NCBI GenBank assembly: GCA_964569575.1
Contig: CAZMTL010000002.1
Span: 19,618 to 83,617, forward strand
DNA: 64,000 bases
From: an uncultured Gammaproteobacteria bacterium
GTDB lineage: Bacteria > Patescibacteriota > Patescibacteriia > UBA9934
Direction of reading: 5' to 3'
Shown here: positions 28,293 to 49,993 of the stretch, in pieces
Layout: every line of letters begins with the position of its first letter
Position numbering within the stretch: position 1 is the first letter of the stretch
The notes under the pieces: model-generated
Seen by the model: the letters and a program-made list of their open reading frames with translations, nothing else
Database searches by the model: none
What the model was told of the DNA's origin: nothing
Made by a program: the position numbers and the translations under genes

Positions 28293-29822
28293 ATGAAAAA
28301 AATTCTCGCTCTCCTATTCGTTGCGTGTACAACCCTGTTCTTACCCACGCAAACCTTCTCCGCAGAACTCATAACGCCCTCGGTTCAATGCGATAACGGA
28401 GAAGAAGGTCTCTACTGCATCTGCTCGACACACTTTCCAAATCCGGGAGTTTTTACCAATGGAATCAGTGATGTTTACGGAACCATCACAGGGTTTGAAT
28501 CCTATCCAGATATCACTACCTACCCAACTACCGTAAATAAATTCGATAAATGCACCGAAGTCTGTTTACAAAACTTGAGAGACAGCGCAGCTAGCAACCC
28601 AACAGCTGTAAGAGAAATTTATACAAACAGCAATAATCCACTAGATTTTTACGCAACCCTCTACTGCGTTGACGCATCAGCAAACGCAACAAATCAAAAA
28701 ACAGAAGTAATCAAATTGGACAATCAGCTAAATTCGGAAGGCAATGCACAATCGGCGAACGCAGACCTACTAAACAATCAGCCACCCAGATTAAACATCA
28801 AAATCCCTGGATTCGGAGAAACTTTCACTACAAGCAACTACATCGGTGAATACATTAAAGCGATTTATCAATTCCTACTGGGAATATCTGCCCTTATTGC
28901 TATTTTGATGTTCACCATTGCAGGATTTCAATGGATGTTAGCTGCAGGAAATTCTGCAGGCATAGCTCAAGCAAAAAAACGAATGGCAGACACCCTAGCC
29001 GGTATCATTCTTTTACTTTGCGCTTACGCAATCGCACAATTAATCGATCCATCCTTTACAACATTTGAAAGAATAAACGTAAGCAATGTTGCAAGAATTG
29101 AAGACGAACTACACTTCGACAACGAATCACAAACCACATCCTCTGAAAATATAACCTTGCCAGATCCAAGCCTCGTGGCGATTACAGGCCCTCACTTACA
29201 GGTAATGACAACGAGCAGATATATGGATGCAAAGGTTCTAGAAGCACTCAACGCCGCAGCAGAACAATTCTACGAAGAAGAAGAATTAAATATAAGAGTC
29301 ACGTCTGGAAGCAGAAGCGTGCAAAGACAAGTAGAAATATTCTACGATCAGTGCCTAACGCCAGGAAAAAATTGTTTAGCTTGCAATCCTGTACCAAGTA
29401 GCAGCCCGTTGTTACAAAAACAGAATTCGCGATATGTCGTTGGCGCAGAGTTACAAGGAAAATCACGAGCAGAAGTTGTCGCAGCACTCACTGCCGTAGG
29501 AAGAGCATCAAAGTGTCCTCACACAAGTAATATCGCCGTAGACGCATGGTGTCCACGAGGCCAAAAAACCGGATACATTACCGAAATTTATTGCCAAGAA
29601 AAGCTCATACAAATCATGAGCGAACACGGTTTCTGTAGACTAGGGATTGAAGCATGGCATTTCGAATACAACGTCCAACCGTATACAAAACTCTCGACCG
29701 ATTGCTCGATGACTCCATCAATAACTTACAAATCCAAAACAACAGGAGCGGCAATTACTCCGGACAAGGCAACTTGCAGTGTATGGGATTGGGATGATCA
29801 CAAATGCGTTGTAGCAAAATAA
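28293..29822 (+). CDS. Fusion protein: Cys-rich extracellular domain + TrbC/VirB2-pilin-like two-TM segment + C-terminal peptidase M15 (VanY-like) cell-wall hydrolase domain
   Basis: Signal peptide; ...FLLGISALIAILMFTIAGFQWMLAAGNSAGIAQAKKRMADTLAGIILLLCAYAIAQ (VirB2/TrbC-like helix-loop-helix); then SGSRS, H-x6-D (HTSNIAVD), EAWHFEY = M15 motifs. Confidence 0.55.
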   Translation: MKKILALLFVACTTLFLPTQTFSAELITPSVQCDNGEEGLYCICSTHFPNPGVFTNGISDVYGTITGFESYPDITTYPTTVNKFDKCTEVCLQNLRDSAASNPTAVREIYTNSNNPLDFYATLYCVDASANATNQKTEVIKLDNQLNSEGNAQSANADLLNNQPPRLNIKIPGFGETFTTSNYIGEYIKAIYQFLLGISALIAILMFTIAGFQWMLAAGNSAGIAQAKKRMADTLAGIILLLCAYAIAQLIDPSFTTFERINVSNVARIEDELHFDNESQTTSSENITLPDPSLVAITGPHLQVMTTSRYMDAKVLEALNAAAEQFYEEEELNIRVTSGSRSVQRQVEIFYDQCLTPGKNCLACNPVPSSSPLLQKQNSRYVVGAELQGKSRAEVVAALTAVGRASKCPHTSNIAVDAWCPRGQKTGYITEIYCQEKLIQIMSEHGFCRLGIEAWHFEYNVQPYTKLSTDCSMTPSITYKSKTTGAAITPDKATCSVWDWDDHKCVVAK

Positions 29823-33344: not shown

Positions 33345-33421
33345 TGGTGCACCCGGCACGACTTGAACGTACGACCCTCAGCTCCGCAAGCTGATGCTCT
33401 ATCCAACTGAGCTACGGGTGC
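33345..33421 (-). tRNA. tRNA-Arg, anticodon GCG (CCA encoded)
   Basis: Hand-folded: GCACCCG/CGGGTGC acceptor; D-arm GCTC-AGTTGGATA-GAGC (A20); anticodon stem TCAGC/GCTGA; loop TTGCGGA; T-arm GTACG-TTCAAGT-CGTGC; A73; CCA. Confidence 0.75.
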
Positions 33422-33554
33422 AAAATATGAAAGAACTCCAACCGACGTACATCTTAACGGACATATGTCATCCGATCAAGTCCCACTAACCAGTACAGCG
33501 AAACGGGTGACGGGAATCGTGAGCAAAAAAAGAGGCCAACTTCAAACGTTTCGC

Positions 33555-34082
33555 TTAGAGTTTATACAGTCTTCGCATCATGTCCGTCAAGCTCTCTTCG
33601 CTACGTTCAATGTTCTCGATACAGTACGGCAACAACGCCTCTCGAACAAGAATCGGGTCAGCGTCTTCAAGCGGAATCGTCAGCATTGGCAACCAACCTT
33701 TTTGAAAAGAAACGTACAGCCATTTAATCTCGGGAGGGGCATAAATGACCGAAAAATCCTTCACTTCCTCGAACGAATAAAATTTATCATCAACCACAAT
33801 CCCTAAATCGGTAATATGCACCTGAATACGCGCTGGTTTTCGCAAATCGAGTGCCAGAAAAATCACCGCAATCATCAACACAATAATGGCAAACATAAAG
33901 TTCGCCGTCCACAAAGAATACACAATTAAAAGCGCCGTAATAATCCCTGCAACAATATACCAACGCTTCGAACGCAGATGCGGTAAAAATTCCCAAGTCT
34001 CCCAAGAATACGCCGCCAAACCAGCATCCATCACTTCTTCCTGTGGAGAATTATTTCCCTGATTTTGGTCATTTTTTTCCAT
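33555..34082 (-). CDS. Hypothetical membrane protein (2 TM)
   Basis: Start placed at MEKNDQNQ ATG (34082); the longer track ORF would run through the tRNA-Ser gene. No recognisable motifs. Confidence 0.45.
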   Translation of the reverse strand: MEKNDQNQGNNSPQEEVMDAGLAAYSWETWEFLPHLRSKRWYIVAGIITALLIVYSLWTANFMFAIIVLMIAVIFLALDLRKPARIQVHITDLGIVVDDKFYSFEEVKDFSVIYAPPEIKWLYVSFQKGWLPMLTIPLEDADPILVREALLPYCIENIERSEESLTDMMRRLYKL

Positions 34083-34156
34083 ACTTCTTCCAGTATACCA
34101 AACAACTCTTGATTCCAGGAACAATTTCGGGTACTCTATGCACACCTCAATACTGA

Positions 34157-34246
<90 letters not shown>

Positions 34247-34372
34247 AAAACATCCAACGCAAGTTGGATGTTTTTGTTTTTAGAAGAGAACAAGTCCTTG
34301 CACTACGATTTTCGCGCAAAACAAAAAAACGACCACTCAAGGTCGTTTTTTTGTGTTTACAATCACGTGAAG

Positions 34373-34846
34373 TTATTCGCAATCTTCTTCGTTAATCACC
34401 ACAAGGTAACTCTCGTCACTATCAGCGACGGCGTACGAATACTTCAACTCGATACCAGCATCAAACAACACAGGTGCGTCTGGATTTGCGCACACAGTTG
34501 GAAGAAGGAATTCTTTCAAGAACTCGTTCGAAAACCCTGTTCGATCAAGATCAGCGGCGATTTCGTATTCGTATCGAACCGCATCACCTTCCGCAACCAA
34601 ATCAACAAGCGTCGTAGAAGAATCAACGGCCATTGGCAAATCAAGATTTTCCTTCGCCTCCGAAACGAAACTCTGGATCATTTCATCCTGAACCTTTCCC
34701 GAATTTCCACCAGCAAGCACAGCTACAACCGCCACAATAACAGCAAGAACCAACAAACCTCCCACAACAGCAGCACCCATCATCGACGATTTCTTTTGAT
34801 TAGGCATCTGCTGACCCGGAACCGACTGTGTATTCATATCACTCAT
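34373..34846 (-). CDS. Hypothetical membrane-anchored protein
   Basis: Start at MSDMNTQ; single TM (AAVVGGLLVLAVIVAVVAVLAG) then acidic soluble domain; no assignable motif. Confidence 0.45.
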   Translation of the reverse strand: MSDMNTQSVPGQQMPNQKKSSMMGAAVVGGLLVLAVIVAVVAVLAGGNSGKVQDEMIQSFVSEAKENLDLPMAVDSSTTLVDLVAEGDAVRYEYEIAADLDRTGFSNEFLKEFLLPTVCANPDAPVLFDAGIELKYSYAVADSDESYLVVINEEDCE

Positions 34847-34952
34847 ATTCGAAAGGTAATAATTTATATTGAAGAAGTATACCAAGAAAAGACTATAAAA
34901 TAAAAGCTCTTACAAGAAAAGAAAAAGCCTCACCGAAGTGAGACGTTTTCCA

Positions 34953-35042
34953 TGGCGGAGAGGAGAGGATTCGAACCTCCGAGGGATTTGACTCCCTGCC
35001 ACGTTAGCAATGTGGTGCCTTCGGCCACTCGGCCACCTCTCC
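34953..35042 (-). tRNA. tRNA-Ser, anticodon GCT (long variable arm; CCA encoded)
   Basis: Reverse complement GGAGAGGTGGCCGAGTGGCCGAAGGCACCACATTGCTAACGTGG...GGAGGTTCGAATCCTCTCCTCTCCGCCA; loop TTGCTAA. Confidence 0.75.
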
Positions 35043-35098: not shown

Positions 35099-36436
35099 CT
35101 AGGCGACATCCTGCTCAACAGCTGGTGCAAGCAGCCTGTACGAACGTGAATTTCGAGCCAAAATAGTCACAAACAATCCAATAATTCCGGCACAAATAAA
35201 CACAAGTGCAATTCCACGATCCATTCCGACTCCAAACCAATCTCCGATCAATCCAACTCCGGCCCCAGTAGTCATAAACGGAATGAACACTGTTTGCGCG
35301 ATCGGACCAATCAAAAATGCAGTAAACGGAGTCGCTGCCGATTCAACACTTTGCGCAAACCCAAACACACGCCCTTGCCGTTCATACGGCACCACTTTCT
35401 GCAAAATAGTCTGTTCCGAAGCCTCCATAAACGGTACAAGCAACATCCAGAAAAATAGCCCAATAATCAACAGCACAATCGACGCCTGAATAGTAAAGAA
35501 AATACACACGGTCCACGTGATCATATTAATTGCAAACAGTGTTCGTAAAGGATTTCGACCAAGTCCAAATTTTGCAATCAACAATCCGCCAGCAATAAAG
35601 GCAAAACTTAAACACCCAAAAATCAATCCCCACGCCTGAACAGACACGAGCGATAACCCATAAGCGTCCATCAGCGCCATAAACACACCGCCTAGAAAAT
35701 TGTTGAACGTGGTAAAGAAAATAAGTGCAAACAATCCCGGAACAGCAGAAATAATCGCGACCGTTCGACCAAAATCCATTCGCTTTACCGGCTCATCTCC
35801 CTTTCGCCAAACCGCTTTTTTCTCAGGAATAACAACAAACATTAAGTGTGCCAATACCGCCATAGTAATCACACAGGCGATCAACATCGCAAACCACATA
35901 TTCAAAAACCCGATGACCAATCCGCTAAATACCGAAGTAATCGCAAACGCCGCCCCATTCACGGCCCCAACCATTCCATTCGCCTTCGCTCGCTCACCTT
36001 CCGGAAACAGCAAGGTAACCGTCGTAGAAAGCGCGATAGTTCGCAAATTTCCAACAACCACGCCAACAAGCAACACAACAATCAATAGCCAAAGCATTGG
36101 TGAAGAAACGGTCGCAAACACCTCACCAGGAAAAGCTTGAAGCAAAAAAAGCCCAGCTGTAAACGAAACTAAAGAAAAAGCACTCGAAAACATCATCACG
36201 TTTTTCTTCAAATTATGATCAACGATCGCTCCAAAAAACACAGCCGAAAAAGCATTTGCAACGGCAAAAGTACCGGCAAGCAATGATGTCGCAAGCACCG
36301 ATTGAGTTTCGAGAAAGACCCAAAACGTCAACGCAAACCAAACAAAGGTATTGGTAACCGATGCAAACAAGGTATTAAATAAAAGCCCATAAAAAGATTT
36401 CCAAGCCTTTTTCTGGGAAATAGTTTGTTTTTTCAT
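35099..36436 (-). CDS. Major facilitator superfamily transporter
   Basis: About 445 aa, 12 predicted TM helices in two 6-TM halves; start at MKKQTISQ. Confidence 0.6.
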   Translation of the reverse strand: MKKQTISQKKAWKSFYGLLFNTLFASVTNTFVWFALTFWVFLETQSVLATSLLAGTFAVANAFSAVFFGAIVDHNLKKNVMMFSSAFSLVSFTAGLFLLQAFPGEVFATVSSPMLWLLIVVLLVGVVVGNLRTIALSTTVTLLFPEGERAKANGMVGAVNGAAFAITSVFSGLVIGFLNMWFAMLIACVITMAVLAHLMFVVIPEKKAVWRKGDEPVKRMDFGRTVAIISAVPGLFALIFFTTFNNFLGGVFMALMDAYGLSLVSVQAWGLIFGCLSFAFIAGGLLIAKFGLGRNPLRTLFAINMITWTVCIFFTIQASIVLLIIGLFFWMLLVPFMEASEQTILQKVVPYERQGRVFGFAQSVESAATPFTAFLIGPIAQTVFIPFMTTGAGVGLIGDWFGVGMDRGIALVFICAGIIGLFVTILARNSRSYRLLAPAVEQDVA

Positions 36437-36580
36437 AATGCAAATCAGCCGGGATAATAGCACGAAAACGAAATAAAATCCAGTCCAACAACATGGGTTT
36501 CGTTTTCAAAAAAAATACACTACAATACCGACAAATATATGATTTTTCACACCATCAACCGTAAACTGCAATCGATCACC

Positions 36581-38056
36581 ATGTACAACGTGGTCTTGTA
36601 CACGCTATTCGTCATCACCCTCGCGAGCTTCTGCGCAAGCGCGCTCGGGCTGATCACCTACTCCCCACTCGATCTACTCCTGTCGTTTATCTCAATAAAC
36701 GTAGCAGCCATTACCGCACACCTTATCTTTCAATGGATGTTCCGCGCACCCGCGCACCTTCCCTCCACAGGCGTCACAGCCCTACTACTCTTTCTTATCC
36801 TCTACCCATCCACAGACCAAGCAATTCTGGCAGGTAACGCGATCGCAACCATCGTGGCCATCGCCTCAAAATACTTGCTCGCCTTCCGAAAACAACACTT
36901 CTTCAACCCAGCGGCATTCGGCGCAGCATTTGCTGGAATAAGCGGATTAAGCTTTGCGCTTTGGTGGATAGGAAATCCCTACCTACTAGCGATCGTGGCA
37001 CCAATGGCATTACTGGTTGTAGCAAAAATGCGCCGATTTGGAGTGTTCGCCGCCGTCCTGATTTCGAGCACCCTGACCGTCATCGCGCTCGCTCTTGCAA
37101 AAGACGCTCCCGTTGTTGATCAAATTCGCCAACACTTCCTATCGTGGCCAATCGTCTTCTTTGCCGCGTTTATGATCACCGAACCATACACCGCTCCCGT
37201 GCGAAAATGGCAGCAATACGTATTCGCCCTATTCATTGGAATCATCTCAAGCTGGCCAATTCACGCAGGTAGCATTTACTCGACTCCAGAATTAACACTC
37301 CTAATCGCCAACTTCTTCGCCTTTTTTACAGGAATGAAACAGCGGCTTCTCTTGAAGCTGGAAGAAAAACGCACAATCGCAAAAGACACCGTAGAATTTA
37401 TTTTCTCTACCGCAAAAAAACCATGGTTCTTGGCCGGTCAGTATCTTGAATGGACTCTTCCACACGCATCGGAAGACAACCGAGGAATACGCCGATACTT
37501 CACCATCGCATCCGCCCCAACCGAAGACAGCATTCGCCTTGGAATAAAATTCAACACACCTTCTAGTTCATTCAAAACACACCTCGCTAAAATGAAGGTA
37601 GGTGAAACGATCACAGCGTCACAGCTGGGCGGTAATTTCGTTCTTCCAAAATCAACAAGCACTCCACTCGTATTCGTCGCCGGAGGAATCGGTGTTACGC
37701 CATTCCGTAGCATGCTGCAGTACGCCATGGATCAAAAGAGCGATCAACCAATCACCCTCTTCTACTGCAACAAAACAGCCGCAGACATCGCCTACAAAGA
37801 ATTCCTCGCGTCAGCAACCGAAGCGCTCAACCTAACACCGGTGCACGTTCTTTCTGACGACGCTACAAACAGTGAAGCAACCGAGCATGGATTCATCAAC
37901 AAAACGATGGTCGAAAAGTATGTTAAAAATCATCAAGACGCCATTTACTACCTATCTGGACCAAGCGGCATGGTGGACGCCTACAAAAAAATGCTCACCG
38001 AAATGGGAATAAAACGAAGCAAAATCAAAACCGACTACTTCCCTGGCTTCGCTTAA
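36581..38056 (+). CDS. Fusion oxidoreductase: RnfD/NqrB-like polytopic membrane domain (FNPAAFG motif) + C-terminal FNR-like FAD/NAD(P)-binding domain
   Basis: N-terminal about 270 aa, 6-7 TM, with FFNPAAFGAAF (RnfD/NqrB hallmark). C-terminal RRYFTIASAP (RxY[ST] FAD motif) and VFVAGGIGVTPFRSML (NAD(P) motif). Confidence 0.55.
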   Translation: MYNVVLYTLFVITLASFCASALGLITYSPLDLLLSFISINVAAITAHLIFQWMFRAPAHLPSTGVTALLLFLILYPSTDQAILAGNAIATIVAIASKYLLAFRKQHFFNPAAFGAAFAGISGLSFALWWIGNPYLLAIVAPMALLVVAKMRRFGVFAAVLISSTLTVIALALAKDAPVVDQIRQHFLSWPIVFFAAFMITEPYTAPVRKWQQYVFALFIGIISSWPIHAGSIYSTPELTLLIANFFAFFTGMKQRLLLKLEEKRTIAKDTVEFIFSTAKKPWFLAGQYLEWTLPHASEDNRGIRRYFTIASAPTEDSIRLGIKFNTPSSSFKTHLAKMKVGETITASQLGGNFVLPKSTSTPLVFVAGGIGVTPFRSMLQYAMDQKSDQPITLFYCNKTAADIAYKEFLASATEALNLTPVHVLSDDATNSEATEHGFINKTMVEKYVKNHQDAIYYLSGPSGMVDAYKKMLTEMGIKRSKIKTDYFPGFA

Positions 38057-38057
38057 T

Positions 38058-38918
38058 ATGAATCTATTCCTCTCGTTCGATTCCATGGGCAGCACTTGGA
38101 ACATCTACACCAACCAAACACAGGAGGAAGAACTTAAAAAATTAATCACTACCCAAGCATCCGAATTCGATGCTCAATTTTCTCGCTTCAAAAAAACCTC
38201 CCTCATCCAAAAAATAAGTAAGCAGGCAGGAATCTACAATGTACCGACAGACCTGATTGAAATGTTGAAGATCTATAAACAACTCTACACCCCAAGCAAC
38301 AAAACCTTCACACCACTTATCGGAAAAACGCTCGAAGACATCGGCTACGACGAACACTACAGTCTAAAAGAACAACAAACGCTCACACAAACTCCAGATC
38401 TAGACACAGTGCTTCAGATACAAAACAGCACCACAATCAAACTCACACAACCAGTTCTGATCGATATCGGAGGCATCGGGAAAGGATATTTTGTCGATAA
38501 AATTGCTTCAATCCTCGCAAGCCACAACATTACAGAATATCTCATCGACGGCAGCGGCGACATTCTTCACAAAGGCGCAAAGGCGATCCAAACCGCCCTC
38601 GAAGACCCAAACAACACAACAAAAGCGATCGGCATCGCCACATTCCAAAACGGATCCATGTGCGCATCTGCAACCAATCGTCGTACTTGGAAAAAATGGC
38701 ATCACATTGTAAACCCACACACAAACACAAGCGATAACACCATCATTGCGACATGGGTCTACGCACAAAGCACCGCGCTCGCCGACGCGCTCGCAACCGC
38801 CTTATTCCTTGCGCCACCAGAAGCATTCCACGAACAACAGTTCGAATACCTCATCATGAACAATGCACGCAAAATAAAAAAGTCCGCAGGTTTCCCCGCG
38901 GAACTCTTTTTGAAATAA
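38058..38918 (+). CDS. apbE: FAD:protein FMN transferase (ApbE family)
   Basis: 286 aa; ...VLIDIGGIGKGYFVDK... ApbE signature; 2 nt after upstream stop. Confidence 0.8.
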   Translation: MNLFLSFDSMGSTWNIYTNQTQEEELKKLITTQASEFDAQFSRFKKTSLIQKISKQAGIYNVPTDLIEMLKIYKQLYTPSNKTFTPLIGKTLEDIGYDEHYSLKEQQTLTQTPDLDTVLQIQNSTTIKLTQPVLIDIGGIGKGYFVDKIASILASHNITEYLIDGSGDILHKGAKAIQTALEDPNNTTKAIGIATFQNGSMCASATNRRTWKKWHHIVNPHTNTSDNTIIATWVYAQSTALADALATALFLAPPEAFHEQQFEYLIMNNARKIKKSAGFPAELFLK

Positions 38919-38919
38919 C

Positions 38920-39438
38920 TTACGCAGCTGCTTCTTCTCGAATCTGCTCAACAGCGTCCATGAATCCTTTTGGAGTAAGTGATGAACCGTTTACAACACC
39001 CAAGGAAAGCTCATCAAGCGACTTGCCTACCACTTCCGACTCAAATCCTTCTGCAAACATTCCTTGCAACAACACACTTGTCGGATTAGAAGCCTTTCCA
39101 TCAAATTCTGCTGCAACAATCACATCATTTTCTACCGTCAACACAACTTCGACCTCTTCCTGACCAGCAGGTGAAGTGTACGCCCCTGTCGCTGTGTATT
39201 CCCCATCTACATACATTCCCATATCTTCCGCGTCATCTTGCGCCGAATCATCTTCATCCATCATTTCATCTCCGTTCGCTCCCTCTACCTGTTCCATTTC
39301 TTCGGTATTTGTCGAATCTTCAACAGGTGTACGCATCGATTCATTCGTAGCAATCCACACAATAAGAGCAATAACGACACCTAGAGCCAGAACTCCGCCG
39401 ATAATTCGTGCGGGAGAAGTAGTTGTTTCTTGTGACAT
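38920..39438 (-). CDS. Membrane-anchored FMN-binding-domain protein (candidate ApbE flavinylation substrate)
   Basis: N-terminal TM, acidic linker, then YVDGEYTATGAYTSPAG...EVVLTVENDVIVAAEF...LGVVNGSSLTPKGFMDAV, which aligns to FMN_bind consensus (...VDavSGATvTS...) with Ser/Leu at the usual SGAT position. Confidence 0.55.
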   Translation of the reverse strand: MSQETTTSPARIIGGVLALGVVIALIVWIATNESMRTPVEDSTNTEEMEQVEGANGDEMMDEDDSAQDDAEDMGMYVDGEYTATGAYTSPAGQEEVEVVLTVENDVIVAAEFDGKASNPTSVLLQGMFAEGFESEVVGKSLDELSLGVVNGSSLTPKGFMDAVEQIREEAAA

Positions 39439-39510
39439 AGTAGTTCGATAATAGTAACGCCGCCTATTTTAGTAAAATTTAGCAGGAAGAACAATCAAAG
39501 TTCTCCACAG

Positions 39511-40239
39511 CTACCCGCGACCAAGCGAGAATACATGCACCCGCTTTACCCCTGAACGCTTCAATGCGCGCGCAGCGGCCGAAGCCGTTGCCCCCGTTGT
39601 CCACACATCATCCACCAATAAACATCGTTTCGAAGAAAAATCAGAACAAACCAAAAACGGCGAATTCTCCATTTCTAACTTCCGCGCCTGATCACTGCGC
39701 TCCACCTGCCGACCCGTCGAACGTACCCGAACGCAACTCTCCACAACAGGCAAAGAAAACGCAGCACCCAAGTGCTCGGCAATCAATCGAGACTGATCAA
39801 ATCCCCGTTCGCACAATCGTTGAGCATGCAACGGAACATACGCGATTGCATCAATTTTTTGAAATTGTAAAAAAGGCTCTAATTGAACTAAATAGAGACC
39901 AAACTTTCGCTGCAACAACTTCCAAGCAGAATCATCGTAAAAATATTTCCAAGCATGAAGAAGTTCACGAAAAACCGGATCCGCATACACAAAGGCAGAT
40001 TGAACAGAATCAGGTAACAGCTCTTCTCTACATCCAACACACGCAAAACCATACGGTGAAGAAGCGGCGCAAACAAAACACACCGCATGCGGAACAGTTG
40101 GCACCCACGAAACAAAACAATCACCACACAACAAATCCCCTTCCCGCGAACACCGAACACAAAAACGCGGAAAAACAGCCTCCTCCAAAACGGAAACAAG
40201 CTCTTTTAGTCGACCCATGCAAATGAATTCACAAGCCAA
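39511..40239 (-). CDS. comFC: ComF family protein (ComFC-type phosphoribosyltransferase)
   Basis: N-terminal CxxC...CxxC zinc finger; C-terminal LLVDDVWTTGATASAAARAL PRTase motif; about 235 aa. Confidence 0.75.
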   Translation of the reverse strand: MACEFICMGRLKELVSVLEEAVFPRFCVRCSREGDLLCGDCFVSWVPTVPHAVCFVCAASSPYGFACVGCREELLPDSVQSAFVYADPVFRELLHAWKYFYDDSAWKLLQRKFGLYLVQLEPFLQFQKIDAIAYVPLHAQRLCERGFDQSRLIAEHLGAAFSLPVVESCVRVRSTGRQVERSDQARKLEMENSPFLVCSDFSSKRCLLVDDVWTTGATASAAARALKRSGVKRVHVFSLGRG

Positions 40240-40768: not shown

Positions 40769-42766
40769 CTATTTTGGAGAAATAGGAATACTACTCGATC
40801 CCTGCACTTCAGCTCCATCAAGTGCATTTTTCGAACTATTCGGTTTTACCTCATCTTCGTCATCCGTAAACGATGAAGCAAATTCCTTTTTCGCACGCTC
40901 AATTTCGAGCAACTGCTCAGGATTCGTCGTAACCAATTGATCTTCAGTATACGAAGCGACAATTTTAATCGCCGCATGCTTCGGTCCAGCAAAGAAAATC
41001 CCCTCCCCTACAGCCGCTTCAAGCAACAAATATTTTTCACTCTGAGTTAAATTAAACGTGGTCGCAATACGCTCCACTCCCGCCGGCGACTGCTTTAGTA
41101 ACAATTGAAGCGACGAGTTTGTCACAATCGCCTGCCCATACGCGTTCCCCAAGAAGTCGTTCACGTCCTGGGTAATAGTCGTTACTCCTAAATAATACTT
41201 TCGAGCACGCTTCACAAGCGCAAAAATAAACTTCGCCGAATCTTCGTATTGCATCAGCCACCAAGCTTCATCAATCGCCAACACGCGCTTTCGACGACTA
41301 GATCGCACCACATTCCAAATATAGTTTACGATGGTATAAATCGCGATCGGTCGCAATTCATCTTCCAAGTCTCGCACCGAAAAAATCACCAGCTGATTAT
41401 CCATCTCCACGTTAGTCGGCGAATTCAACAATCCAGAAAACGTTCCCTGTGTATACTTACGCAAACGCGCAACCAATTCCTTCGTTCCTTCCATTCCCTC
41501 CAACACTTCTTCCAAATCTTGCAACACCGGAAATTCAGCCGTTGCTAAATTCTGCATCGGAATATCGGAAGTAATATCTTTTTTCGCATACGACTCAATC
41601 AGTGCACGGTCTAACATCGAATCTTCTTCCGGCGTAAATCCAATCACGCCAGCCCCACCCTGCGGCTGACCAATCATAATACGCAACAATCCCTTCAAGG
41701 TAATCACCGCACTTCTCAAAATATCTTCCACCGACGTTTCTTCCCCGACAGGACGTGGTAAATCGAACGGGTTAATTTTTGCTTCGGAAGCAAGCGAAAC
41801 ATTCACGAATGTTCCCCCAACCGCGTCTGAAAGATTGCGATACTCCATTTCCGGATCGATAATAATCACGTCCGTTCCCATCATCAAACTACGCAATACT
41901 TCCAATTTTACCGCATAACTTTTTCCGGCACCGGACGTCGCAAACACGACCGAATTCGCATTCTGCAACGAAAAACGATCAAACAAAATCAACGAATTGT
42001 TATGACGATTAATCCCGTACAAAATCCCTTTATCGCTCGTTAAATCAGAAGAAATAAATGGAAACGAAGAAGCGATCGGTGACGTGTTCATGTTGAACGT
42101 AATCATCAACTCGTCGTTACCAAGCGGCATGGTGGAATTGAAGCCTTGTTCCGATTGATAAAACCCACGCTTCGAATAAATCAACTTCGCACCAAAAATA
42201 GATTCAATGTCTTCAGTACGCTTATCAAGCTCTTCTTTATCCTTCGCGTACACCGTAATATAAAAAGCAAACTGGAAAAAGTGCTCAATCCCCTGTGTTA
42301 AATCGTCACGCAATTGTTCCATATCGCGCAACGCGGTTTCGCGAATCGGATCACGCGGCGCTCCTTTTTCGTTGTCCGAAATAATCTGTGCCTCCACAAT
42401 ACCAACACGGTTTCGCAACTGCTTCAAAATAACCGGTGATTCTACCGGATAAAAAAACATCGCAATGTCGAGCGTTCCATTATAATTGATCACCGGCGCA
42501 CCCCATCCAATCCCAACGTATCGCGGATACGTCACCACAAACAATGTGCGAATATACGTATTTCCTAACAACAAATGATCAGGATTTACCTGAAAAGAAG
42601 CCGGAGCAATCAGATCGCGAACCGTAACAGTTCCACGTCGATACACGCGCTCTTCTTCAAGGGTCGCCTTTTCTTGAACAACACGTTCTTGCTCAGGCGT
42701 AAGCGGCTTCGCCTCTTGCGGCGCAGCCTGCTTCTTTTGATTCAAGTCATTAATATCAAATGCCAT
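40769..42766 (-). CDS. virB4: VirB4/TrbE/CagE-family type IV secretion ATPase (ATPase portion)
   Basis: VFATSGAGKSYAV Walker A, VLAIDEAWWLM Walker B, VirB4-like C-terminal region; 665 aa. Confidence 0.8.
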   Translation of the reverse strand: MAFDINDLNQKKQAAPQEAKPLTPEQERVVQEKATLEEERVYRRGTVTVRDLIAPASFQVNPDHLLLGNTYIRTLFVVTYPRYVGIGWGAPVINYNGTLDIAMFFYPVESPVILKQLRNRVGIVEAQIISDNEKGAPRDPIRETALRDMEQLRDDLTQGIEHFFQFAFYITVYAKDKEELDKRTEDIESIFGAKLIYSKRGFYQSEQGFNSTMPLGNDELMITFNMNTSPIASSFPFISSDLTSDKGILYGINRHNNSLILFDRFSLQNANSVVFATSGAGKSYAVKLEVLRSLMMGTDVIIIDPEMEYRNLSDAVGGTFVNVSLASEAKINPFDLPRPVGEETSVEDILRSAVITLKGLLRIMIGQPQGGAGVIGFTPEEDSMLDRALIESYAKKDITSDIPMQNLATAEFPVLQDLEEVLEGMEGTKELVARLRKYTQGTFSGLLNSPTNVEMDNQLVIFSVRDLEDELRPIAIYTIVNYIWNVVRSSRRKRVLAIDEAWWLMQYEDSAKFIFALVKRARKYYLGVTTITQDVNDFLGNAYGQAIVTNSSLQLLLKQSPAGVERIATTFNLTQSEKYLLLEAAVGEGIFFAGPKHAAIKIVASYTEDQLVTTNPEQLLEIERAKKEFASSFTDDEDEVKPNSSKNALDGAEVQGSSSIPISPK

Positions 42767-42768
42767 AC

Positions 42769-43473
42769 TTAAAATCCGTCCTCAACGCGCAATTCGTTCA
42801 CGTTGGTTAATTTTTCATTATCGTACACGTCCGGGTTGTACACCGTGTAATACAACTCAATCAGCCCCTGTGTATCGAGTACCACGCTCTTCAATCCCAT
42901 TCCGTTCAAGCCCCCTTCCACAATACTGACACGCTGCATTAACGCCTGTTTGCGCTCTTTAAATTGCTTGGCATTCAACTTCACCACCGAAGCCGGCACA
43001 AGCGCACTCGAAATACGAGAAAAAAATCCATTCTTTTTATCGCTCGCCGTACTATACGGAACAACAACATAAAAACGCTTCTCCATAATCTCGCCCAAAT
43101 CCACCAAATCCTTCACGAATGCACGGTAATCTTTAATTTGCGTACGTAACAATTCATTCGCAATCTTTTCCTCTTGTTCAATTAAATAATTCATGTACCG
43201 ATCAACGTTCATCTTTCGTGACTGGATAACGATTTGCAAAGGATGTTCCAATCCATTCAAAAACTGCATGTACGACTGAATAGTCGCCTGCTGTTCATCA
43301 ACTGATTTAAGCGCAAAATTAATCGACGATACCATCATAACGGCACGCAACGTACCATCCTTCAAGATCACCACATTCTCTCGAATTTCGGCAATATCCA
43401 AATATCGCTGAGTCGGAGGACCTGGTTTTACTTTACTAATTTTTTTGGATTGCATTTCGTTCGACTTTGCCAT
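42769..43473 (-). CDS. VirB4 N-terminal-domain-like protein (split VirB4, translationally coupled to 40769-42766)
   Basis: Stop TAA at 42769-71 and downstream ATG at 42766-64 (2-nt gap). Sequence ...QRYLDIAEIRENVVILKDGTLRAVMMVSSINF... resembles VirB4/TraC N-terminal domain; combined length about 900 aa. Confidence 0.45.
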   Translation of the reverse strand: MAKSNEMQSKKISKVKPGPPTQRYLDIAEIRENVVILKDGTLRAVMMVSSINFALKSVDEQQATIQSYMQFLNGLEHPLQIVIQSRKMNVDRYMNYLIEQEEKIANELLRTQIKDYRAFVKDLVDLGEIMEKRFYVVVPYSTASDKKNGFFSRISSALVPASVVKLNAKQFKERKQALMQRVSIVEGGLNGMGLKSVVLDTQGLIELYYTVYNPDVYDNEKLTNVNELRVEDGF

Positions 43474-43474
43474 A

Positions 43475-43954
43475 TTAAAGCAGTTGTTTCGAAGTAACCG
43501 GATCAATAAGAATTTCTTGATCAACGCCAGATTCGTACACGCCACCCGTATTCACCACCAACGCCAATTCAGACAATTTTGATCGTTCCAACCCACGTTT
43601 CACAGGGACAGGCGGAGGAAGAACTTCAACGTCTTTTTTCAGACGCATCTTCAAATCAGAATCGAGCAACGTCTTATCCCAAACCCGCAGCATCGGCTTG
43701 CGCAACGTTTGCACCATATTCAAAGCAATATAATGAAACGGCCGCCCATTCACCCGCGCAAACGCAAAGACCACGCCAATCACCAGCACCGGAATTCCTA
43801 ATAAAAGAAAAATAATGATGCTCGAAAAAAGACTATAGATAAAAAATTCCACCAAAATAACCGCAAGCAAAATCAAAAACTGCCGACCAGTAATCGGACC
43901 AATAATCTTCGACTCGACATCAAGAAATTGTGGAACGACAAATTGCTGCGCCAT
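43475..43954 (-). CDS. PrgI/VirB3-like small two-TM protein
   Basis: MAQQFVVPQFLDVESKIIGPITGRQFLILLAVILVEFFIYSLF...LLLGIPVLVIGVVFAFARVNGRPFHYI; stop 1 nt before the VirB4-N ATG. Start at 43954 rather than track start 44278 (which runs into the repeat region). Confidence 0.5.
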   Translation of the reverse strand: MAQQFVVPQFLDVESKIIGPITGRQFLILLAVILVEFFIYSLFSSIIIFLLLGIPVLVIGVVFAFARVNGRPFHYIALNMVQTLRKPMLRVWDKTLLDSDLKMRLKKDVEVLPPPVPVKRGLERSKLSELALVVNTGGVYESGVDQEILIDPVTSKQLL

Positions 43955-44047
43955 GCCTTCAGTATAACACGAAAACAAAAACCAACAGGGATAATAAAGT
44001 GGATAGAAAAAGAGAAATTTAAACCCGACAGCAAACAAAGAAGCGAT

Positions 44048-44097
44048 CAACGCGTAACCACCCCTAGCCCCTCCTTGTGGATCTAAGAAGGAGGGGG
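44048..44097. repeat. Direct repeat copy 1 (caacgcgtaaccacccctagccc + GC hairpin cccctcctt...aaggagggg)
   Basis: Read directly; 9-bp perfect stem cccctcctt/aaggagggg with 11-nt loop. Confidence 0.7.
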
Positions 44098-44565
44098 AAC
44101 GAGCTCGATTTTCGCCGAGAGATTGCTTCGTCGCAAGACTCCTCGCAATGACCAAGTCGAGGCGCATAGATCCTTCACTTCGTTCAGGATGACAAAGTCG
44201 TTTGTTCTGATGTCCTTCCCGCACGAAGAGAGGCGAAGCCGAACGCCAGCGGAGCTCAACGCGCTGTGACAAAGGCACTGTAACAAAATCACGCGAAGGT
44301 CGAGCAGTTCGTCGAACCGGCTGGAGGGGGCCTGACCCCCGTAGGACCGGTGTAGCGAAAAGAACTGCGATCGGTCACTTTCCATAATTTAAAAAATGAA
44401 GCGTGCCGCCGAGCCACGAAAGGCTCTTTCTTTTGCCTACTTCTCTTTGAGCCAGCAAAGAAAAGTAGGTCGGGGTTCGGGGGTGAAACTCCCGATCGCT
44501 GTGACAAAGTCGAGTGTAACAAAATCAAAGCGGCGGAGTCGCGTCAGCCTCGCGGGCACACACGA

Positions 44566-44694: not shown

Positions 44695-47019
44695 TTAAAA
44701 CTTCATCTTCTTATTCAACTCCACAATCGCCTGCACCTCGGCAGGAGAAAGCGATTCTTTCCCTTCATTTCTACGATCAGTCGCAATTTCCGCAAACGAA
44801 CGCCCGGCTGTAAGCGATTCACGCGCCATATCTAAATACAACCGATTTACCGGACTCTTGCGCCAACCAGCAACACCAGCAATACGCTGTTCGTAGGCCG
44901 TCGCCTGCAACAACATTAATTTATCCAAAATCTTGCGCCCTGCTTCTTTAGGATCGCTACTCAATCGTCTAAATTCAGAAACCGTCATTGTCCCCAATTC
45001 CTCCACAGGCCCAACCAATTTCTTCACATACGAAACATCCGTCACCTTCCCACCAGATTCTTTATGAACAGGCGCCGCACTTCCAGCGCTCACAAACGCC
45101 TTCGCTTTCTTTGGTCGAGCAGAAACTTCTGCCTCAACAAGAGCCTGCGAACTCACAGAACCTCCCTGCAACTTCAGTTCCTCCTCTTTTGTTCGCGCAG
45201 CACTTACGCTTGCATGCGGAAGCACCGGCTCGACAGATTCTGTCGAACGACTTTTCGTTAACGCAGAAAAACGCTGATCAAGCACCTGGCGCTCTGCTGT
45301 ATCAAAATCCTTCTTCACCTCAGGTACAGCTTTCACTGGCATTTGATGCACACTCGCACGTTTCGCAGCCAACACCACACGCGCAGCATCTTCGTGAGTA
45401 AACGAAAACTTATCAATCAAATACCTCTCCGCTTGATGCAATTCACGCGTTCCTCGCACTACCGAAGCAATCACATCACGAGCCTGCTTTTCTTCAACGG
45501 TATATTTATTAAAGATCTCTGAAGTACTTCGGTACACTTCTTCCACAGTCGTCTCGATAGAAGTAGCCGCAGGAGCAACAGCACGTCTCTGCATCTTGCG
45601 CTTCTCGGCAAGCACCTCCTTCTCTTCCTCTGGTCCAAGCATCATCGAGGCATCTTTCGCTGCAACCACCGAAACGCGTTCGAGCGATTGCGCAGGAGAA
45701 CGCACCGAAAGCGGGCGATCAAACTGTACAGGCGTCTTTTTTGCCTTTATCTCAACCGCAACATCAGGCCCAGACATCATACGCGTCCGTTCCTTGCTTA
45801 ACTTAGCTAAAATATCGCCTGCTTCTTCTTTCGAAAAACCGTGAACATGCTCCAAAATCTGCCGCGTCTTCCCCTTCGAACGCCCTTCGTGCAAAAACCC
45901 GATCGTTAAATCTTTATACGCCACTTCGGACAAACCTTTATTTAGAAAAGTAGCGTGAATCGACTCAAGCGAATCACCCGCATCAACAGTCTGATTTACA
46001 GCACCACGGTCAATAGGAACATCGCGCCAATTCGAAGGTACATCAAGCGCCGCAAATAACGAATCCCAAGACAAATCTTCATCGTCAACCGGAAGCTGAA
46101 CGTCGGGCGCAGGAGCTGTATCACGTGAAGAAAAAAGAGCCATAAACTGATTCCAAACAGCCGCCTTCGATCGCTCGAGTGGTACATCGCTCGCAACATG
46201 CACATCTGTTCGACCAATCTGAACAGACTGATTTGCGCCACTCAACGTAGATTTATACCGATCCGCTTCGCGCTTTGTTAATACCCCAGGCTGTCTGCGC
46301 TGTAACGTCGTCGGACCACCCACTTTAAATACATAAGCAGGATCATCGGCCGCACGCGCAGGCAACCTCGAATCCAAAGACGGTTCAACGACAGGCGCTT
46401 CTGTTTCCAAATCCGAAACATCAGACACATCGAGCGCAAATTTCTTCCCTTCTTTATCGAGCGCATCCAAAAATTTCTCCGAAACAGCCGCATCCAACTC
46501 CATCCCACCAACCGAGACAGGACGACCAAGTGTATGCAAAATAGATTCCTTCGTTCGCGCCTTGGTTAAATACGAAGTAGCCAAGTAAATCAACCGTCGC
46601 AACAAATGTTCCGACAAATTCATCCCCCACTTCTGCACCATGTGACGCACAAACTCGTCGGGAGAAATTTGCTCCTTCTCAACTACCTTTGTTTCATAGT
46701 GCGTCACATCTCCTCCCAAATGCGAAATCTCGGCAACCACGGTTGGTAAATATAACTTCAACGGCAACAACACCATTCCCAAAAAATCCGCCGTCACTTC
46801 CTTCGACTTCGCCTCTTCCAGTCCAAACGCCGCCCGAATCAATTCCTCAACGCCCGTAATTTCCAAATTCCCCCGCACCACCGCATCGCGTAAATCTAAA
46901 AACTCCTCCAACCGATCGGCCGGTAACTGATGCTTTTCAACTAACTGCCTAAGTCGACTAAACACTGAAACGTCGAGCACATAAACAGCAACTGGCTTGT
47001 AAACACGTAAATCCTCCAT
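44695..47019 (-). CDS. Large hypothetical soluble protein (774 aa) inside the T4SS-like cluster
   Basis: Long ORF, no TM, no P-loop found by eye (GRSKGKT is G-x3-GKT, not a Walker A); no assignable motifs. Confidence 0.5.
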   Translation of the reverse strand: MEDLRVYKPVAVYVLDVSVFSRLRQLVEKHQLPADRLEEFLDLRDAVVRGNLEITGVEELIRAAFGLEEAKSKEVTADFLGMVLLPLKLYLPTVVAEISHLGGDVTHYETKVVEKEQISPDEFVRHMVQKWGMNLSEHLLRRLIYLATSYLTKARTKESILHTLGRPVSVGGMELDAAVSEKFLDALDKEGKKFALDVSDVSDLETEAPVVEPSLDSRLPARAADDPAYVFKVGGPTTLQRRQPGVLTKREADRYKSTLSGANQSVQIGRTDVHVASDVPLERSKAAVWNQFMALFSSRDTAPAPDVQLPVDDEDLSWDSLFAALDVPSNWRDVPIDRGAVNQTVDAGDSLESIHATFLNKGLSEVAYKDLTIGFLHEGRSKGKTRQILEHVHGFSKEEAGDILAKLSKERTRMMSGPDVAVEIKAKKTPVQFDRPLSVRSPAQSLERVSVVAAKDASMMLGPEEEKEVLAEKRKMQRRAVAPAATSIETTVEEVYRSTSEIFNKYTVEEKQARDVIASVVRGTRELHQAERYLIDKFSFTHEDAARVVLAAKRASVHQMPVKAVPEVKKDFDTAERQVLDQRFSALTKSRSTESVEPVLPHASVSAARTKEEELKLQGGSVSSQALVEAEVSARPKKAKAFVSAGSAAPVHKESGGKVTDVSYVKKLVGPVEELGTMTVSEFRRLSSDPKEAGRKILDKLMLLQATAYEQRIAGVAGWRKSPVNRLYLDMARESLTAGRSFAEIATDRRNEGKESLSPAEVQAIVELNKKMKF

Positions 47020-49860: not shown

Positions 49861-49993
49861 AGATAGGTACAGTATAACAAATTTTCGCTCACTCTTGTGA
49901 AAGTTTTGCACATGCAACCGAAAGAAAAATCCCCACTTCTTCCAAACGCCGTTTGCGTGCAGAAAAAGTAGGGATCAGTTGAGCGAACACGAC

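Follow-up and report, generated by a model that had tools for sequence, protein, structure and literature searches.

[quoted passage not shown] (2021, eLife 10:e66878) as a fusion of the PF03116 and PF00175 domains encoded beside ApbE, together with an NqrC/RnfG-like partner, and 127 clusters of this kind were recorded, mainly from Actinobacteria and the candidate phyla radiation. Huang et al. (2024, bioRxiv 2024.03.13.584918) modelled the system by AlphaFold-multimer, described its second subunit as an NqrC/RnfG homologue that is membrane-anchored and extracytosolic, and reported that the B/D-like domain has lost the flavinylated Thr of NqrB/RnfD. In their description, the complex of the two subunits carries the flavin of the partner up to the flavin pocket of the B/D-like domain. 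A one-way model, with electrons passing from NAD(P)H to the outside, has been published. The published accounts examined are bioinformatic or consist of AlphaFold models, and the system has never been purified. A Pfam-based census found flavinylation to be under-represented in the candidate phyla radiation.

The three-gene cluster described here corresponds to these accounts in several points. PF03116 and a C-terminal PF00175 domain occur on one protein (protein A), as in the definition of Méheust et al. (2021), these authors ask for an ApbE, FMN_bind, DUF2271 or DUF3570 gene no more than five genes from the fusion gene, and here the ApbE gene starts 1 nt after gene A. The anchored, extracytosolic NqrC/RnfG homologue of Huang et al. 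(2024) is matched by protein C, and the absence of the flavinylated Thr from the B/D-like domain is matched by protein A. The sequence-only reading did not know the RnfD–FNR fusion as a standard architecture, but it is by this gene that Méheust et al. (2021) define the NQR/RNF-like system. The architecture is therefore known, and the cluster is another member of a described, biochemically uncharacterised system. A strict version of the published pipeline might skip it, since the ApbE is leaderless and protein C has neither a lipobox nor a Pfam FMN_bind match.

The genes belong to a bacterium of the candidate phyla radiation, placed there by its ribosomal protein L2, and lie close together in the 64-kb window (the whole stretch of DNA that was analysed), with a 1-nt gap between neighbours. 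Gene A (36539-38056, + strand; 505 aa) encodes a protein in which an RnfD/NqrB-like membrane domain is followed in the same chain by an FNR-type FAD/NAD(P)H oxidoreductase domain, and is the key gene of the NQR/RNF-like system. Gene B (38058-38918, + strand; 286 aa) encodes a leaderless FAD:protein FMN transferase of the ApbE family. Gene C (38920-39438, - strand; 172 aa) is convergent to genes A and B; its product has a membrane anchor at the N-terminus, then an acidic linker of low complexity and a divergent domain of the FMN_bind fold. This product is the NqrC/RnfG-like partner and presumably the substrate of ApbE. Gene A had been read from 36581, but the start at 36539 is more likely because the 14 residues upstream of M15 are conserved among homologues, T14 being nearly invariant and M15 and Y16 invariant. 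An A-ApbE fusion or stop-codon read-through is ruled out, as genes A and B are in different frames with a TAA between them.

Several putative regulatory elements, all of them consensus matches only, flank the genes. One promoter-like site (TTTTCA-17-GATAAT; 36430-36458, + strand) is located about 80 nt upstream of gene A, within a 75-nt divergent intergenic region shared with an MFS gene, and the count of such sites in the region is not above the shuffled expectation. Another (TTTACT-17-TATTAT; 39448-39476, - strand) is found directly upstream of gene C, while a terminator-like hairpin (38883-38902, - strand; 8 bp, 6 GC, with a T-rich tail) lies just 3' of the gene C stop, inside the 3' end of the ApbE gene. 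The divergent MFS neighbour bears a weak resemblance to EntS/Mef-type exporters.

The membrane domain of protein A (aa 1-268; 36539-37342, + strand) comprises an N-terminal amphipathic helix and about 10 transmembrane helices in an RnfD/NqrB fold, so that the 6-7 transmembrane segments first proposed give way to about 10-11 helices. Its assignment to this family, also made from sequence before, holds: Pfam NQR2_RnfD_RnfE (PF03116) matches aa 144-261 with 38.3 bits against a cut-off of 27.7. This match covers only the C-terminal 40% of the profile. However, in an hhalign comparison of the protein A family profile with E. coli RsxD, residues 43-267 of protein A align with RsxD 40-345 (E = 7e-6), and by alignment the whole membrane domain is RnfD-like despite the partial Pfam match. 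The FNPAAFG motif noticed earlier is present in the translation at aa 122-128 (36902-36922, + strand), where N123 and P124 are invariant among 30 homologues and align within FNPAMIG of RsxD; T214-E215-P216 (37178-37186, + strand), equivalent to TDP of RnfD/NqrB, is likewise invariant among the 30. Judging from motif correspondence and the RsxD alignment, N123, P124, T214, E215 and P216 probably represent NPA and TDP of RsxD and the NqrB riboflavin pocket, which is lined by F342, T345 and D346 (PMC9293633). Nothing in protein A corresponds to RsxD 138-216, the stretch that includes T187, indicating deletion of the approximately 80-residue loop that bears the flavinylated Thr.

The FNR-like cytoplasmic module of protein A (aa 269-505; 37343-38056, + strand) consists of FAD_binding_6 (PF00970; aa 272-360; 22.4 bits against a cut-off of 21.1) and a C-terminal NAD_binding_1 domain (PF00175; aa 379-483; 71.1 bits against a cut-off of 22), and NqrF chains are among the best PDB matches. 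Both FNR-type motifs of the sequence-only reading were recovered, namely the FAD-binding R-x-[YF]-[ST] motif as RRYFT (aa 318-322; 37490-37504, + strand; R319 and T322 invariant) and the NAD(P)H-binding glycine-rich motif as GGIGVTP (aa 382-388; 37682-37702, + strand; G382, G383, I384, G385, T387 and P388 invariant). The module contains no Fe-S or haem motif, and the two Cys residues of protein A are both outside the conserved columns. Beyond the standard FNR and RnfD motifs no flavinylation site of the G-[AS]-[ST] type was found in protein A, and all of its invariant Ser and Thr residues belong to these standard motifs. Two flavinylation substrates had been considered; protein C remains plausible, with an invariant Ser at the acceptor position, whereas the RnfD-like domain has lost the loop corresponding to that of RsxD T187.

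The ApbE signature of the second gene was borne out by Pfam (PF02424; E = 1.1e-41, 143.5 bits), and residues G141, G143, D147, S204, R208, H216, D243 and T247 are conserved in an alignment with E. coli Ftp/ApbE. By analogy with enzymes treated in a review, H216 would act as the general base and D243 and T247 as Mg ligands. An N-terminal signal peptide or lipobox is typical of ApbE, but not universal. None was found on protein B, which has no equivalent of the 35-residue lipoprotein leader of E. coli Ftp/ApbE; the first conserved strand starts already at M10 (MGSTW), after no more than 9 residues (MNLFLSFDS). There is also no space for a leader upstream, since the frame is closed 15 codons ahead of the start codon. 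The same is common among relatives, as the ApbE is without signal peptide or lipobox in 60 of 64 related clusters, and we found no discussion of leaderless ApbE in the literature consulted on the NQR/RNF-like system.

Protein C carries a transmembrane anchor at aa 12-30 (IIGGVLALGVVIALIVWIA; 39349-39405, - strand), seen as a helix at 17-35 in the predicted structure, which looks uncleaved and is not a lipobox. A lipobox-like leader takes the place of the anchor in 50 of 258 homologues, and the FMN_bind-like domain of protein C is therefore taken to be extracytoplasmic. No twin-arginine pattern was seen in any of the 258, and Tat export, considered as a way to reconcile the leaderless ApbE with an exported protein C, was rejected. 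In the predicted model the C-terminal 97 residues (aa 76-172; 38923-39213, - strand; pLDDT >90) adopt the FMN_bind fold. Hence the earlier suggestion of an FMN_bind-like domain in the facing gene stands as a predicted fold and fails as a Pfam match: protein C has no match in Pfam or NCBIfam, and none to Pfam FMN_bind (PF04205) at E<=0.1, while 9 of 32 homologues match that profile weakly (best E = 1.6e-4). A family profile searched against PDB gave nothing meaningful (best E = 0.62, Protein L), the probability in hhalign against RsxG of E. coli, taken as a single sequence, was 2.8%, and protein C was not recovered at E<=1 with a profile of the canonical SGAT partners. The tie to FMN_bind is consequently one of fold comparison and motif-level alignment.

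The predicted flavinylation acceptor is Ser153 (codon at 38980-38982, - strand), situated within V-V-N-G-S-S-L-T-P-K-G-F. It is invariant among 32 homologues, all 243 family members that bear the motif have Ser here, and in alignments the position corresponds to the SGAT Thr of Pfam-positive partners and to T174 of RsxG from E. coli. The Ser/Leu that had been proposed for this position is thus settled as Ser. Compared with the consensus D-x-x-[S/T]-G-A-[S/T], Ser153 and Gly151 are present and invariant, while Asp is replaced by Gly (at a column variable in the family), the S/T of position 3 by Asn and Ala by Ser. Serine is an accepted ApbE acceptor, and changes of D to A and A to V in the motif of another, tested enzyme weaken but do not abolish flavinylation.

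Relatives of gene A were found by tblastn in at least 478 stretches of a species-representative genome set, from which 80 loci were kept for neighbour analyses. These include Patescibacteria, Chloroflexota, Alphaproteobacteria, Actinobacteria and Spirochaetota, and the A-B-C trio recurs in loci whose flanks are otherwise unrelated. A long ApbE (about 287 aa), as in this window, pairs with an xG(S/A)S partner having a Ser acceptor (17/17), whereas a short ApbE pairs with a [ST]GA[TS] partner (35 Thr and 6 Ser acceptors). In the gene A tree the short-ApbE type forms one clade, while the long-ApbE type is a basal grade and not a single clade. Sequence comparison thus points to two co-evolving lineages, one combining long ApbE with the xG(S/A)S Ser acceptor and the other short ApbE with canonical SGAT; no discussion of this split was found in the literature consulted on the NQR/RNF-like system. 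Since the trio recurs amid unrelated flanks and the ApbE subtype tracks the acceptor motif, genes A, B and C behave as a unit. The partner family with a Ser acceptor (NGSS/SGSS) amounts to 3145 clusters at 50% identity and goes undetected by Pfam FMN_bind. Clustering of neighbours across the 80 loci gave, besides the FMN_bind gene, only ABC transporters and two-component systems of sporadic occurrence; conservation does not extend to the MFS neighbour, and there is no conserved terminal reductase, acceptor, transporter or iron transporter near the cluster.

Within the NQR/RNF-like system, this cluster shares with the described members the fusion next to apbE, the anchored NqrC/RnfG-like partner, the RnfD-like part lacking the flavinylated Thr, the occurrence in the candidate phyla radiation and the predicted one-way flow from NAD(P)H to the outside. 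It differs in that the partner is invisible to Pfam FMN_bind and has the Ser in N-G-S-S without Asp, that the ApbE is of the long subtype, and that gene C is convergent. Ktedonospora and Dictyobacter, which are closely related to the organism of the published model, belong to the short-ApbE/SGAT lineage, unlike this window.

Na+-NQR (NqrA-F) follows the same logic of ApbE-dependent flavinylation, and the pocket residues of protein A correspond to the NqrB riboflavin site; however, NqrA, NqrD, NqrE, the 2Fe-2S domain and the covalent-FMN Thr of the B-like domain are all missing here, and the B-like and F-like parts form one polypeptide. There is no basis for Na+ pumping, because a return path to quinone is lacking. 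The Rnf complex (RnfABCDGE; RsxABCDGE in E. coli) offers a parallel to the acceptor segment of protein C (NGSSLTPKGFMDAV) in RsxG (TGATITPRAVVNAV), but RnfA, RnfB, RnfC and RnfE are missing, the RnfD T187 loop is deleted, and the donor would be NAD(P)H through the FNR module, in contrast to Rnf, which uses ferredoxin through Fe-S subunits. Flavin-based extracellular electron transfer of the Listeria type (Ndh2, DmkA/B, EetA/B, PplA, FmnB) likewise takes place in a monoderm and delivers NADH electrons to an FMN_bind protein that is flavinylated by ApbE and tethered to the membrane outside the cytoplasm, but its route passes through quinone and EetA/B and not through an RnfD-like domain, and FmnB is a secreted lipoprotein whereas the ApbE here is leaderless. 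The MsrQ-like/NOX-type and PepSY-like PF00175 fusions also place an FNR-type module on an outward electron-carrying membrane domain and occur in clusters with apbE and FMN_bind; the membrane domains of these fusions are di-haem cytochromes, whereas that of protein A is of the flavin-binding RnfD/NqrB fold, with neither a haem nor an Fe-S ligand motif.

We regard it as about 75% probable that the cluster is an NQR/RNF-like flavinylation-associated transmembrane electron-transfer system of the long-ApbE/Ser-acceptor lineage. Domain identities, folds, synteny, motifs and conservation are shown here, and from the folds, the motifs and the published model we infer the cofactor content, the flavinylation of Ser153, the direction of flow, the acceptor and the specificity for the donor. 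In protein A, NAD(P)H would reduce the FAD of the FNR-like module on the cytoplasmic side. The RnfD/NqrB-like domain would then take the electrons across the membrane, probably by way of a non-covalent flavin in a conserved pocket that is recognised by its NPA and F-x-x-T-E-P motifs and is equivalent to the NqrB riboflavin site. From there the electrons would reach FMN, linked by ApbE through a phosphoester to Ser153 of the anchored extracytoplasmic protein C; this FMN may take the place of the covalent FMN of NqrB/RnfD in the parent complexes. The electrons would finally leave to some extracellular or cell-surface acceptor. The flow is predicted to be one-way: a return path through NqrD/E or RnfA/E is missing, as is an Fe-S centre, and nothing points to ion pumping. 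The idea of a compact, Rnf/Nqr-derived unit carrying electrons from NAD(P)H to an extracytoplasmic flavoprotein agrees with sequence, fold and published model; a simple picture in which ApbE works on the outer face finds no support in the sequence, the enzyme being leaderless. What counts against the main reading is this leaderless ApbE set against an exported protein C, the failure of protein C to match Pfam FMN_bind or the canonical-partner profile together with the departure of its motif at Asp and Ala, and the lack of a conserved terminal acceptor or iron transporter beside the cluster.

The prevalence of leaderless ApbE (60/64 clusters) could alternatively mean that the enzyme serves the cytoplasm only, having another target or acting as an FAD-binding or FAD-hydrolysing helper of protein A, with protein C binding flavin non-covalently or having another role. 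Cytoplasmic ApbEs with cytoplasmic substrates do exist, for instance in the case of Klebsiella fumarate reductase (as covered in a review), and the protein C motif lacks the consensus Asp and Ala and is sub-threshold in Pfam. However, protein A offers no other acceptor motif, its invariant Ser and Thr residues being those of standard RnfD/FNR motifs; the acceptor Ser is kept in all 243 motif-bearing homologues; the ApbE subtype co-varies with the acceptor motif of the partner, as would be expected of an enzyme and its substrate; and D-to-A and A-to-V changes merely reduce flavinylation. We therefore consider a purely cytoplasmic ApbE unlikely. It is also doubtful that the same machinery works as an assimilatory ferric or metal reductase feeding an iron importer, and we give this little credence. 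Méheust et al. (2021) suggested an assimilatory iron role for the six NQR/RNF-like clusters that include VIT1, iron is often reduced by FNR-fused membrane reductases, and the divergent MFS neighbour is weakly EntS/Mef-like; but neither VIT1 nor another iron transporter is near the cluster in the window, no iron-transporter family is among the 15 most recurrent neighbour families of the 80 loci, and the MFS gene is not conserved.

Respiratory complexes are generally absent from candidate phyla radiation genomes, which argues against the view of the cluster as a decayed Rnf/Nqr operon, either a non-functional fragment or spare subunits for a complete complex with its genes elsewhere. The parts are limited to D/B-like, G/C-like and F-like ones, the RnfD Pfam match is partial and the inspection covered 64 kb of a contig of at least 139 kb, all of which would be compatible with a remnant. 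Yet the three-gene unit is found in several phyla and in unrelated surroundings with its ORFs intact and many residues invariant, and both the FNR fusion and the exact excision of the Thr loop are derived features held in common. The refuting condition named in the sequence-only reading, a complete Rnf/Nqr complex, was checked for in the 64-kb window with a negative outcome: phmmer and tblastn with E. coli Rsx proteins detected no RsxA, B, C, E or G homologue elsewhere in it, and no other ORF there has a match to Rnf/Nqr Pfam families (including the A/E = NqrD/E pair and the B/C = NqrA/F subunits). A remnant thus seems very improbable.

If the main reading is retained, a cytoplasmic transferase stands against an exported lipoprotein or signal-anchored substrate without a Tat signal, and this is seen in both lineages and in several phyla. 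A tentative and rather improbable solution is that the partner receives its FMN before it folds, in the cytoplasm with its supply of FAD, and afterwards passes through Sec or YidC as a flavinylated chain. If true, a covalent cofactor would be installed ahead of export, and export of FAD would not be needed.

The module is already catalogued, and the window contributes a member and not a concept. For the flavinylation field it provides testable points in the way in which a leaderless ApbE serves an exported substrate and in the large Ser-acceptor partner family missed by the Pfam-based census. If flavinylation before export holds true, the NGSS/SGSS partners would be an under-counted class of flavinylation substrates, and the candidate phyla radiation would look poorer in extracytosolic flavinylation than it really is. 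Bacteria of the candidate phyla radiation possess almost no membrane redox machinery, and because of this the three-gene device may be one of their few candidate routes for balancing redox or for reducing external or host substrates.

The three genes of the module are separated by one-nucleotide gaps between neighbouring ORFs. Gene A (36539-38056, + strand, 505 aa) encodes an RnfD/NqrB-like membrane domain fused to an FNR-type FAD/NAD(P)H domain, gene B (38058-38918, + strand, 286 aa) is the ApbE (FAD:protein FMN transferase) gene of the window, and gene C (38920-39438, - strand, 172 aa), convergent on gene B, encodes a membrane-anchored partner of the FMN_bind fold. Among the features tested, the cluster possesses those that define the NQR/RNF-like system, described as a flavinylation-associated cluster encoding a PF03116 and PF00175 fusion (Méheust et al. 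2021) and as two subunits, the fusion and an NqrC/RnfG-like protein (Huang et al. 2024). The RnfD and FNR fusion, not recognised as a standard architecture in the sequence-only reading, had already been catalogued in both studies. We found no biochemical characterisation of the system in the literature, and the window cluster is another member of this known, experimentally uncharacterised kind. Its parts are identified and conserved, and the route they form is most likely one in which NAD(P)H would reduce FAD in the FNR module of protein A, electrons would pass to a flavin held non-covalently by the RnfD-like domain of the same protein, then to an FMN that Ser153 of protein C would carry on the outer side of the membrane, and finally to an acceptor beyond protein C. 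We infer these cofactors and steps, and the proposal largely agrees with the earlier idea of an Rnf/Nqr-derived transfer of electrons from NAD(P)H to the outside.

Three Pfam domains are matched above the gathering threshold in protein A, namely NQR2_RnfD_RnfE (aa 144-261, 38.3 bits), FAD_binding_6 (aa 272-360, 22.4 bits) and NAD_binding_1 (aa 379-483, 71.1 bits). The FNPAAFG, RxY[ST] and GGxGxTP motifs noticed earlier are real, and lie at residues 122-128, 318-322 (RRYFT) and 382-388 (GGIGVTP), respectively. Because the RnfD match is partial, the whole membrane domain was tested further; with a profile of 30 homologues, residues 43-267 align with residues 40-345 of the E. coli Rnf subunit RsxD (hhalign, probability 84%, E 7e-6), which bears out the RnfD/NqrB assignment. 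The domain has about 10-11 helices instead of the 6-7 first counted, and since its N-terminal helix is conserved, a start at 36539 is favoured over the 36581 originally proposed. Protein A shows neither an Fe-S nor a haem motif, and its two Cys residues both fall outside conserved columns. [quoted passage not shown] 2024). N123-P124 and T214-E215-P216 are invariant among the homologues and match NPA and TDP in RsxD, and the riboflavin-pocket segment of NqrB is F-x-x-T-D (F342, T345, D346; PMC9293633). A non-covalent flavin site is therefore probably retained in protein A. In the Ktedonobacter complex as modelled with AlphaFold-multimer, the covalent flavin of the partner seems to reach the B/D-like flavin pocket (Huang et al. 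2024).

The facing gene C was originally called FMN_bind-like. Its product itself has no Pfam or NCBIfam match, and the family profile has no PDB match by sequence, but PF04205 is weakly matched by 9 of 32 homologues, and in a MAFFT alignment Ser153 shares a column with the flavinylated T174 of E. coli RsxG and with the Thr of Pfam-positive partners from related clusters. The surrounding near-invariant segment, V-V-N-G-S-S-L-T-P-K-G-F-M-D-A-V, parallels F-T-G-A-T-I-T-P-R-A-V-V-N-A-V of RsxG. This family is large and conserved, with 375 proteins at E<=0.01 in a word-indexed search and 3145 representatives (50% identity) at E<=1e-3 in an exhaustive one. Several of the 375 come from contigs equal in length to contigs on which gene A homologues lie. 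The motif is present in 243 of 258 members (NGSS 172, SGSS 47, AGSS 11, NGAS 8, SGAS 4 and HGSS 1), and the acceptor is Ser in every one of the 243; of the Ser/Leu suggested at this position, Ser stands and Leu does not. Of the two candidate substrates, protein A lacks the Thr187 stretch and protein C offers Ser153. The ApbE target motif in the literature is D-x-x-[S/T]-G-A-[S/T], with Ser tolerated less well than Thr as acceptor and changes of the Asp or Ala only weakening flavinylation, and Ser153 thus appears compatible with the modification. A lipobox-like leader takes the place of the anchor in 50 of 258 homologues and a twin-arginine pattern occurs in none of the 258, indicating that the domain is extracytoplasmic and Sec-dependent. 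Between anchor and domain, protein C has a strongly acidic, D/E-rich linker of ~40 residues (aa 36-75), while the linkers of its homologues are Ser/Thr/Pro- or Met-rich, of low complexity and very different in length. One homologue, P0363 (440 aa), carries three tandem domain copies, two with G-G-A-S-L-T-N and one with G-Q-A-S-E-T-T, and is possibly a member of the Ser-acceptor family that is flavinylated at several sites.

A scan in which each species was represented by a single genome confirmed relatives of gene A in at least 478 matched stretches. We compared 80 loci together with four contigs carrying named homologues; the 80 include Patescibacteria, Chloroflexota (Ktedonobacteria), Alphaproteobacteria (Mesorhizobium, Kaistia), Actinobacteria (Agreia, Herbiconiux, Cellulomonas) and Spirochaetota. 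Gene A, ApbE and a small FMN_bind-type gene co-occur while the flanks vary, the FMN_bind gene being the only strongly recurrent neighbour family. It is very improbable that the module is the remnant of an operon; no other Rnf or Nqr subunits were found within the 64-kb window. Long ApbEs (about 285-310 aa, the window type) always accompany a divergent xG(S/A)S-L-T partner with a Ser acceptor (17/17). Short ApbEs (about 247 aa), still matching PF02424 at 131-136 bits, have partners with the canonical V-D-x-x-[ST]-G-A-[TS] and a Thr (35) or Ser (6) acceptor; Pfam detects the canonical partner in the one tested. Neighbour-joining analysis of gene A gathers the short-type loci in a single clade, leaves the long-type loci as a basal grade and groups the window with loci of the same convergent gene order. 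These patterns suggest that the NQR/RNF-like system comprises two co-evolving lineages, long ApbE with Ser acceptor versus short ApbE with SGAT (examples at L053 3761-6509 and L017 417-3319). That ApbE type co-varies with the acceptor motif of the partner is the strongest indirect argument for ApbE and protein C being enzyme and substrate.

The next gene, B, was rightly recognised by its ApbE signature (Pfam, E 1.1e-41), and it keeps G141, G143, D147, S204, R208, H216, D243 and T247 when aligned with three related-cluster homologues and E. coli Ftp/ApbE. Whereas the E. coli protein has a 35-residue lipoprotein signal, the gene B product has no leader, only nine residues preceding the first conserved strand (MGSTW). 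Judged by a frame upstream of this strand that is closed or without a hydrophobic stretch, ApbE is unable to encode a signal peptide in 60 of 64 NQR/RNF-like clusters, across several phyla, and we found no mention of this in the literature on the system. A leaderless ApbE beside an exported FMN_bind partner (with anchor or lipobox, and no Tat motif) looks like a topological paradox. The cytoplasmic ApbEs known so far all have cytoplasmic substrates, according to one review. An ApbE whose role faces the cytoplasm, leaving protein C unflavinylated, is an unlikely explanation here. As ApbE accepts short unfolded tags (literature), one possibility, admittedly speculative, is that the partner is flavinylated before Sec export. 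A specific iron-reductase role for the module is also unlikely. We still regard the route from NAD(P)H to Ser153-FMN and onwards as the most likely one.

Beyond the module, the window is unremarkable chromosomal DNA from a member of the candidate phyla radiation. It encodes ribosomal proteins, EF-Tu, EF-G, ComEC (16445-17920), RecG, type-IV-secretion-like proteins and three tRNAs; the L2 ribosomal protein shows 76-80% identity to proteins labelled Patescibacteria or Candidatus Uhrbacteria. Upstream of gene A and divergent from it, across a 75-nt intergenic region, lies an MFS transporter gene (35099-36463, - strand), which is DHA3/Mef/EntS-like, far under all NCBIfam cut-offs, and is not kept beside the module in other genomes. 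Just upstream of it, tRNA genes Arg-GCG, Ser-TGA and Ser-GCT are interleaved with small ORFs without family match (33345-35042). By consensus match only, promoter-like hexamers precede gene A (36430-36458, +) and gene C (39476-39448, -), and a terminator-like hairpin for gene C lies within the 3' end of gene B (38902-38883, -). Gene C is followed by a ComF-family gene (39511-40239, -). Type-IV-secretion-like genes, comprising a T4SS_pilin-domain protein, a VirB4/TraG-type ATPase and a PrgI-family protein, are found on either side of the module (28293-29822 and 40769-44278); together with ComF and ComEC, such genes are what bacteria of the candidate phyla radiation usually carry for DNA uptake and pili. 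Three very large ORFs, 58124-63964 (-, 1946 aa), 47029-49917 (-, 962 aa) and 44695-47019 (-, 774 aa), have no Pfam matches, and an 818-aa ORF (49994-52450), with an M23 peptidase domain as its sole match, spans a GC-rich stretch (0.60 at 50-52 kb versus ~0.45 elsewhere).

The published census of flavinylation systems filtered for Pfam FMN_bind or ApbE plus a predicted signal peptide, and the candidate phyla radiation is under-represented in it. Because of this filter, the Ser-acceptor lineage may be under-counted there, and both this lineage and the leaderless ApbE merit specialist attention.
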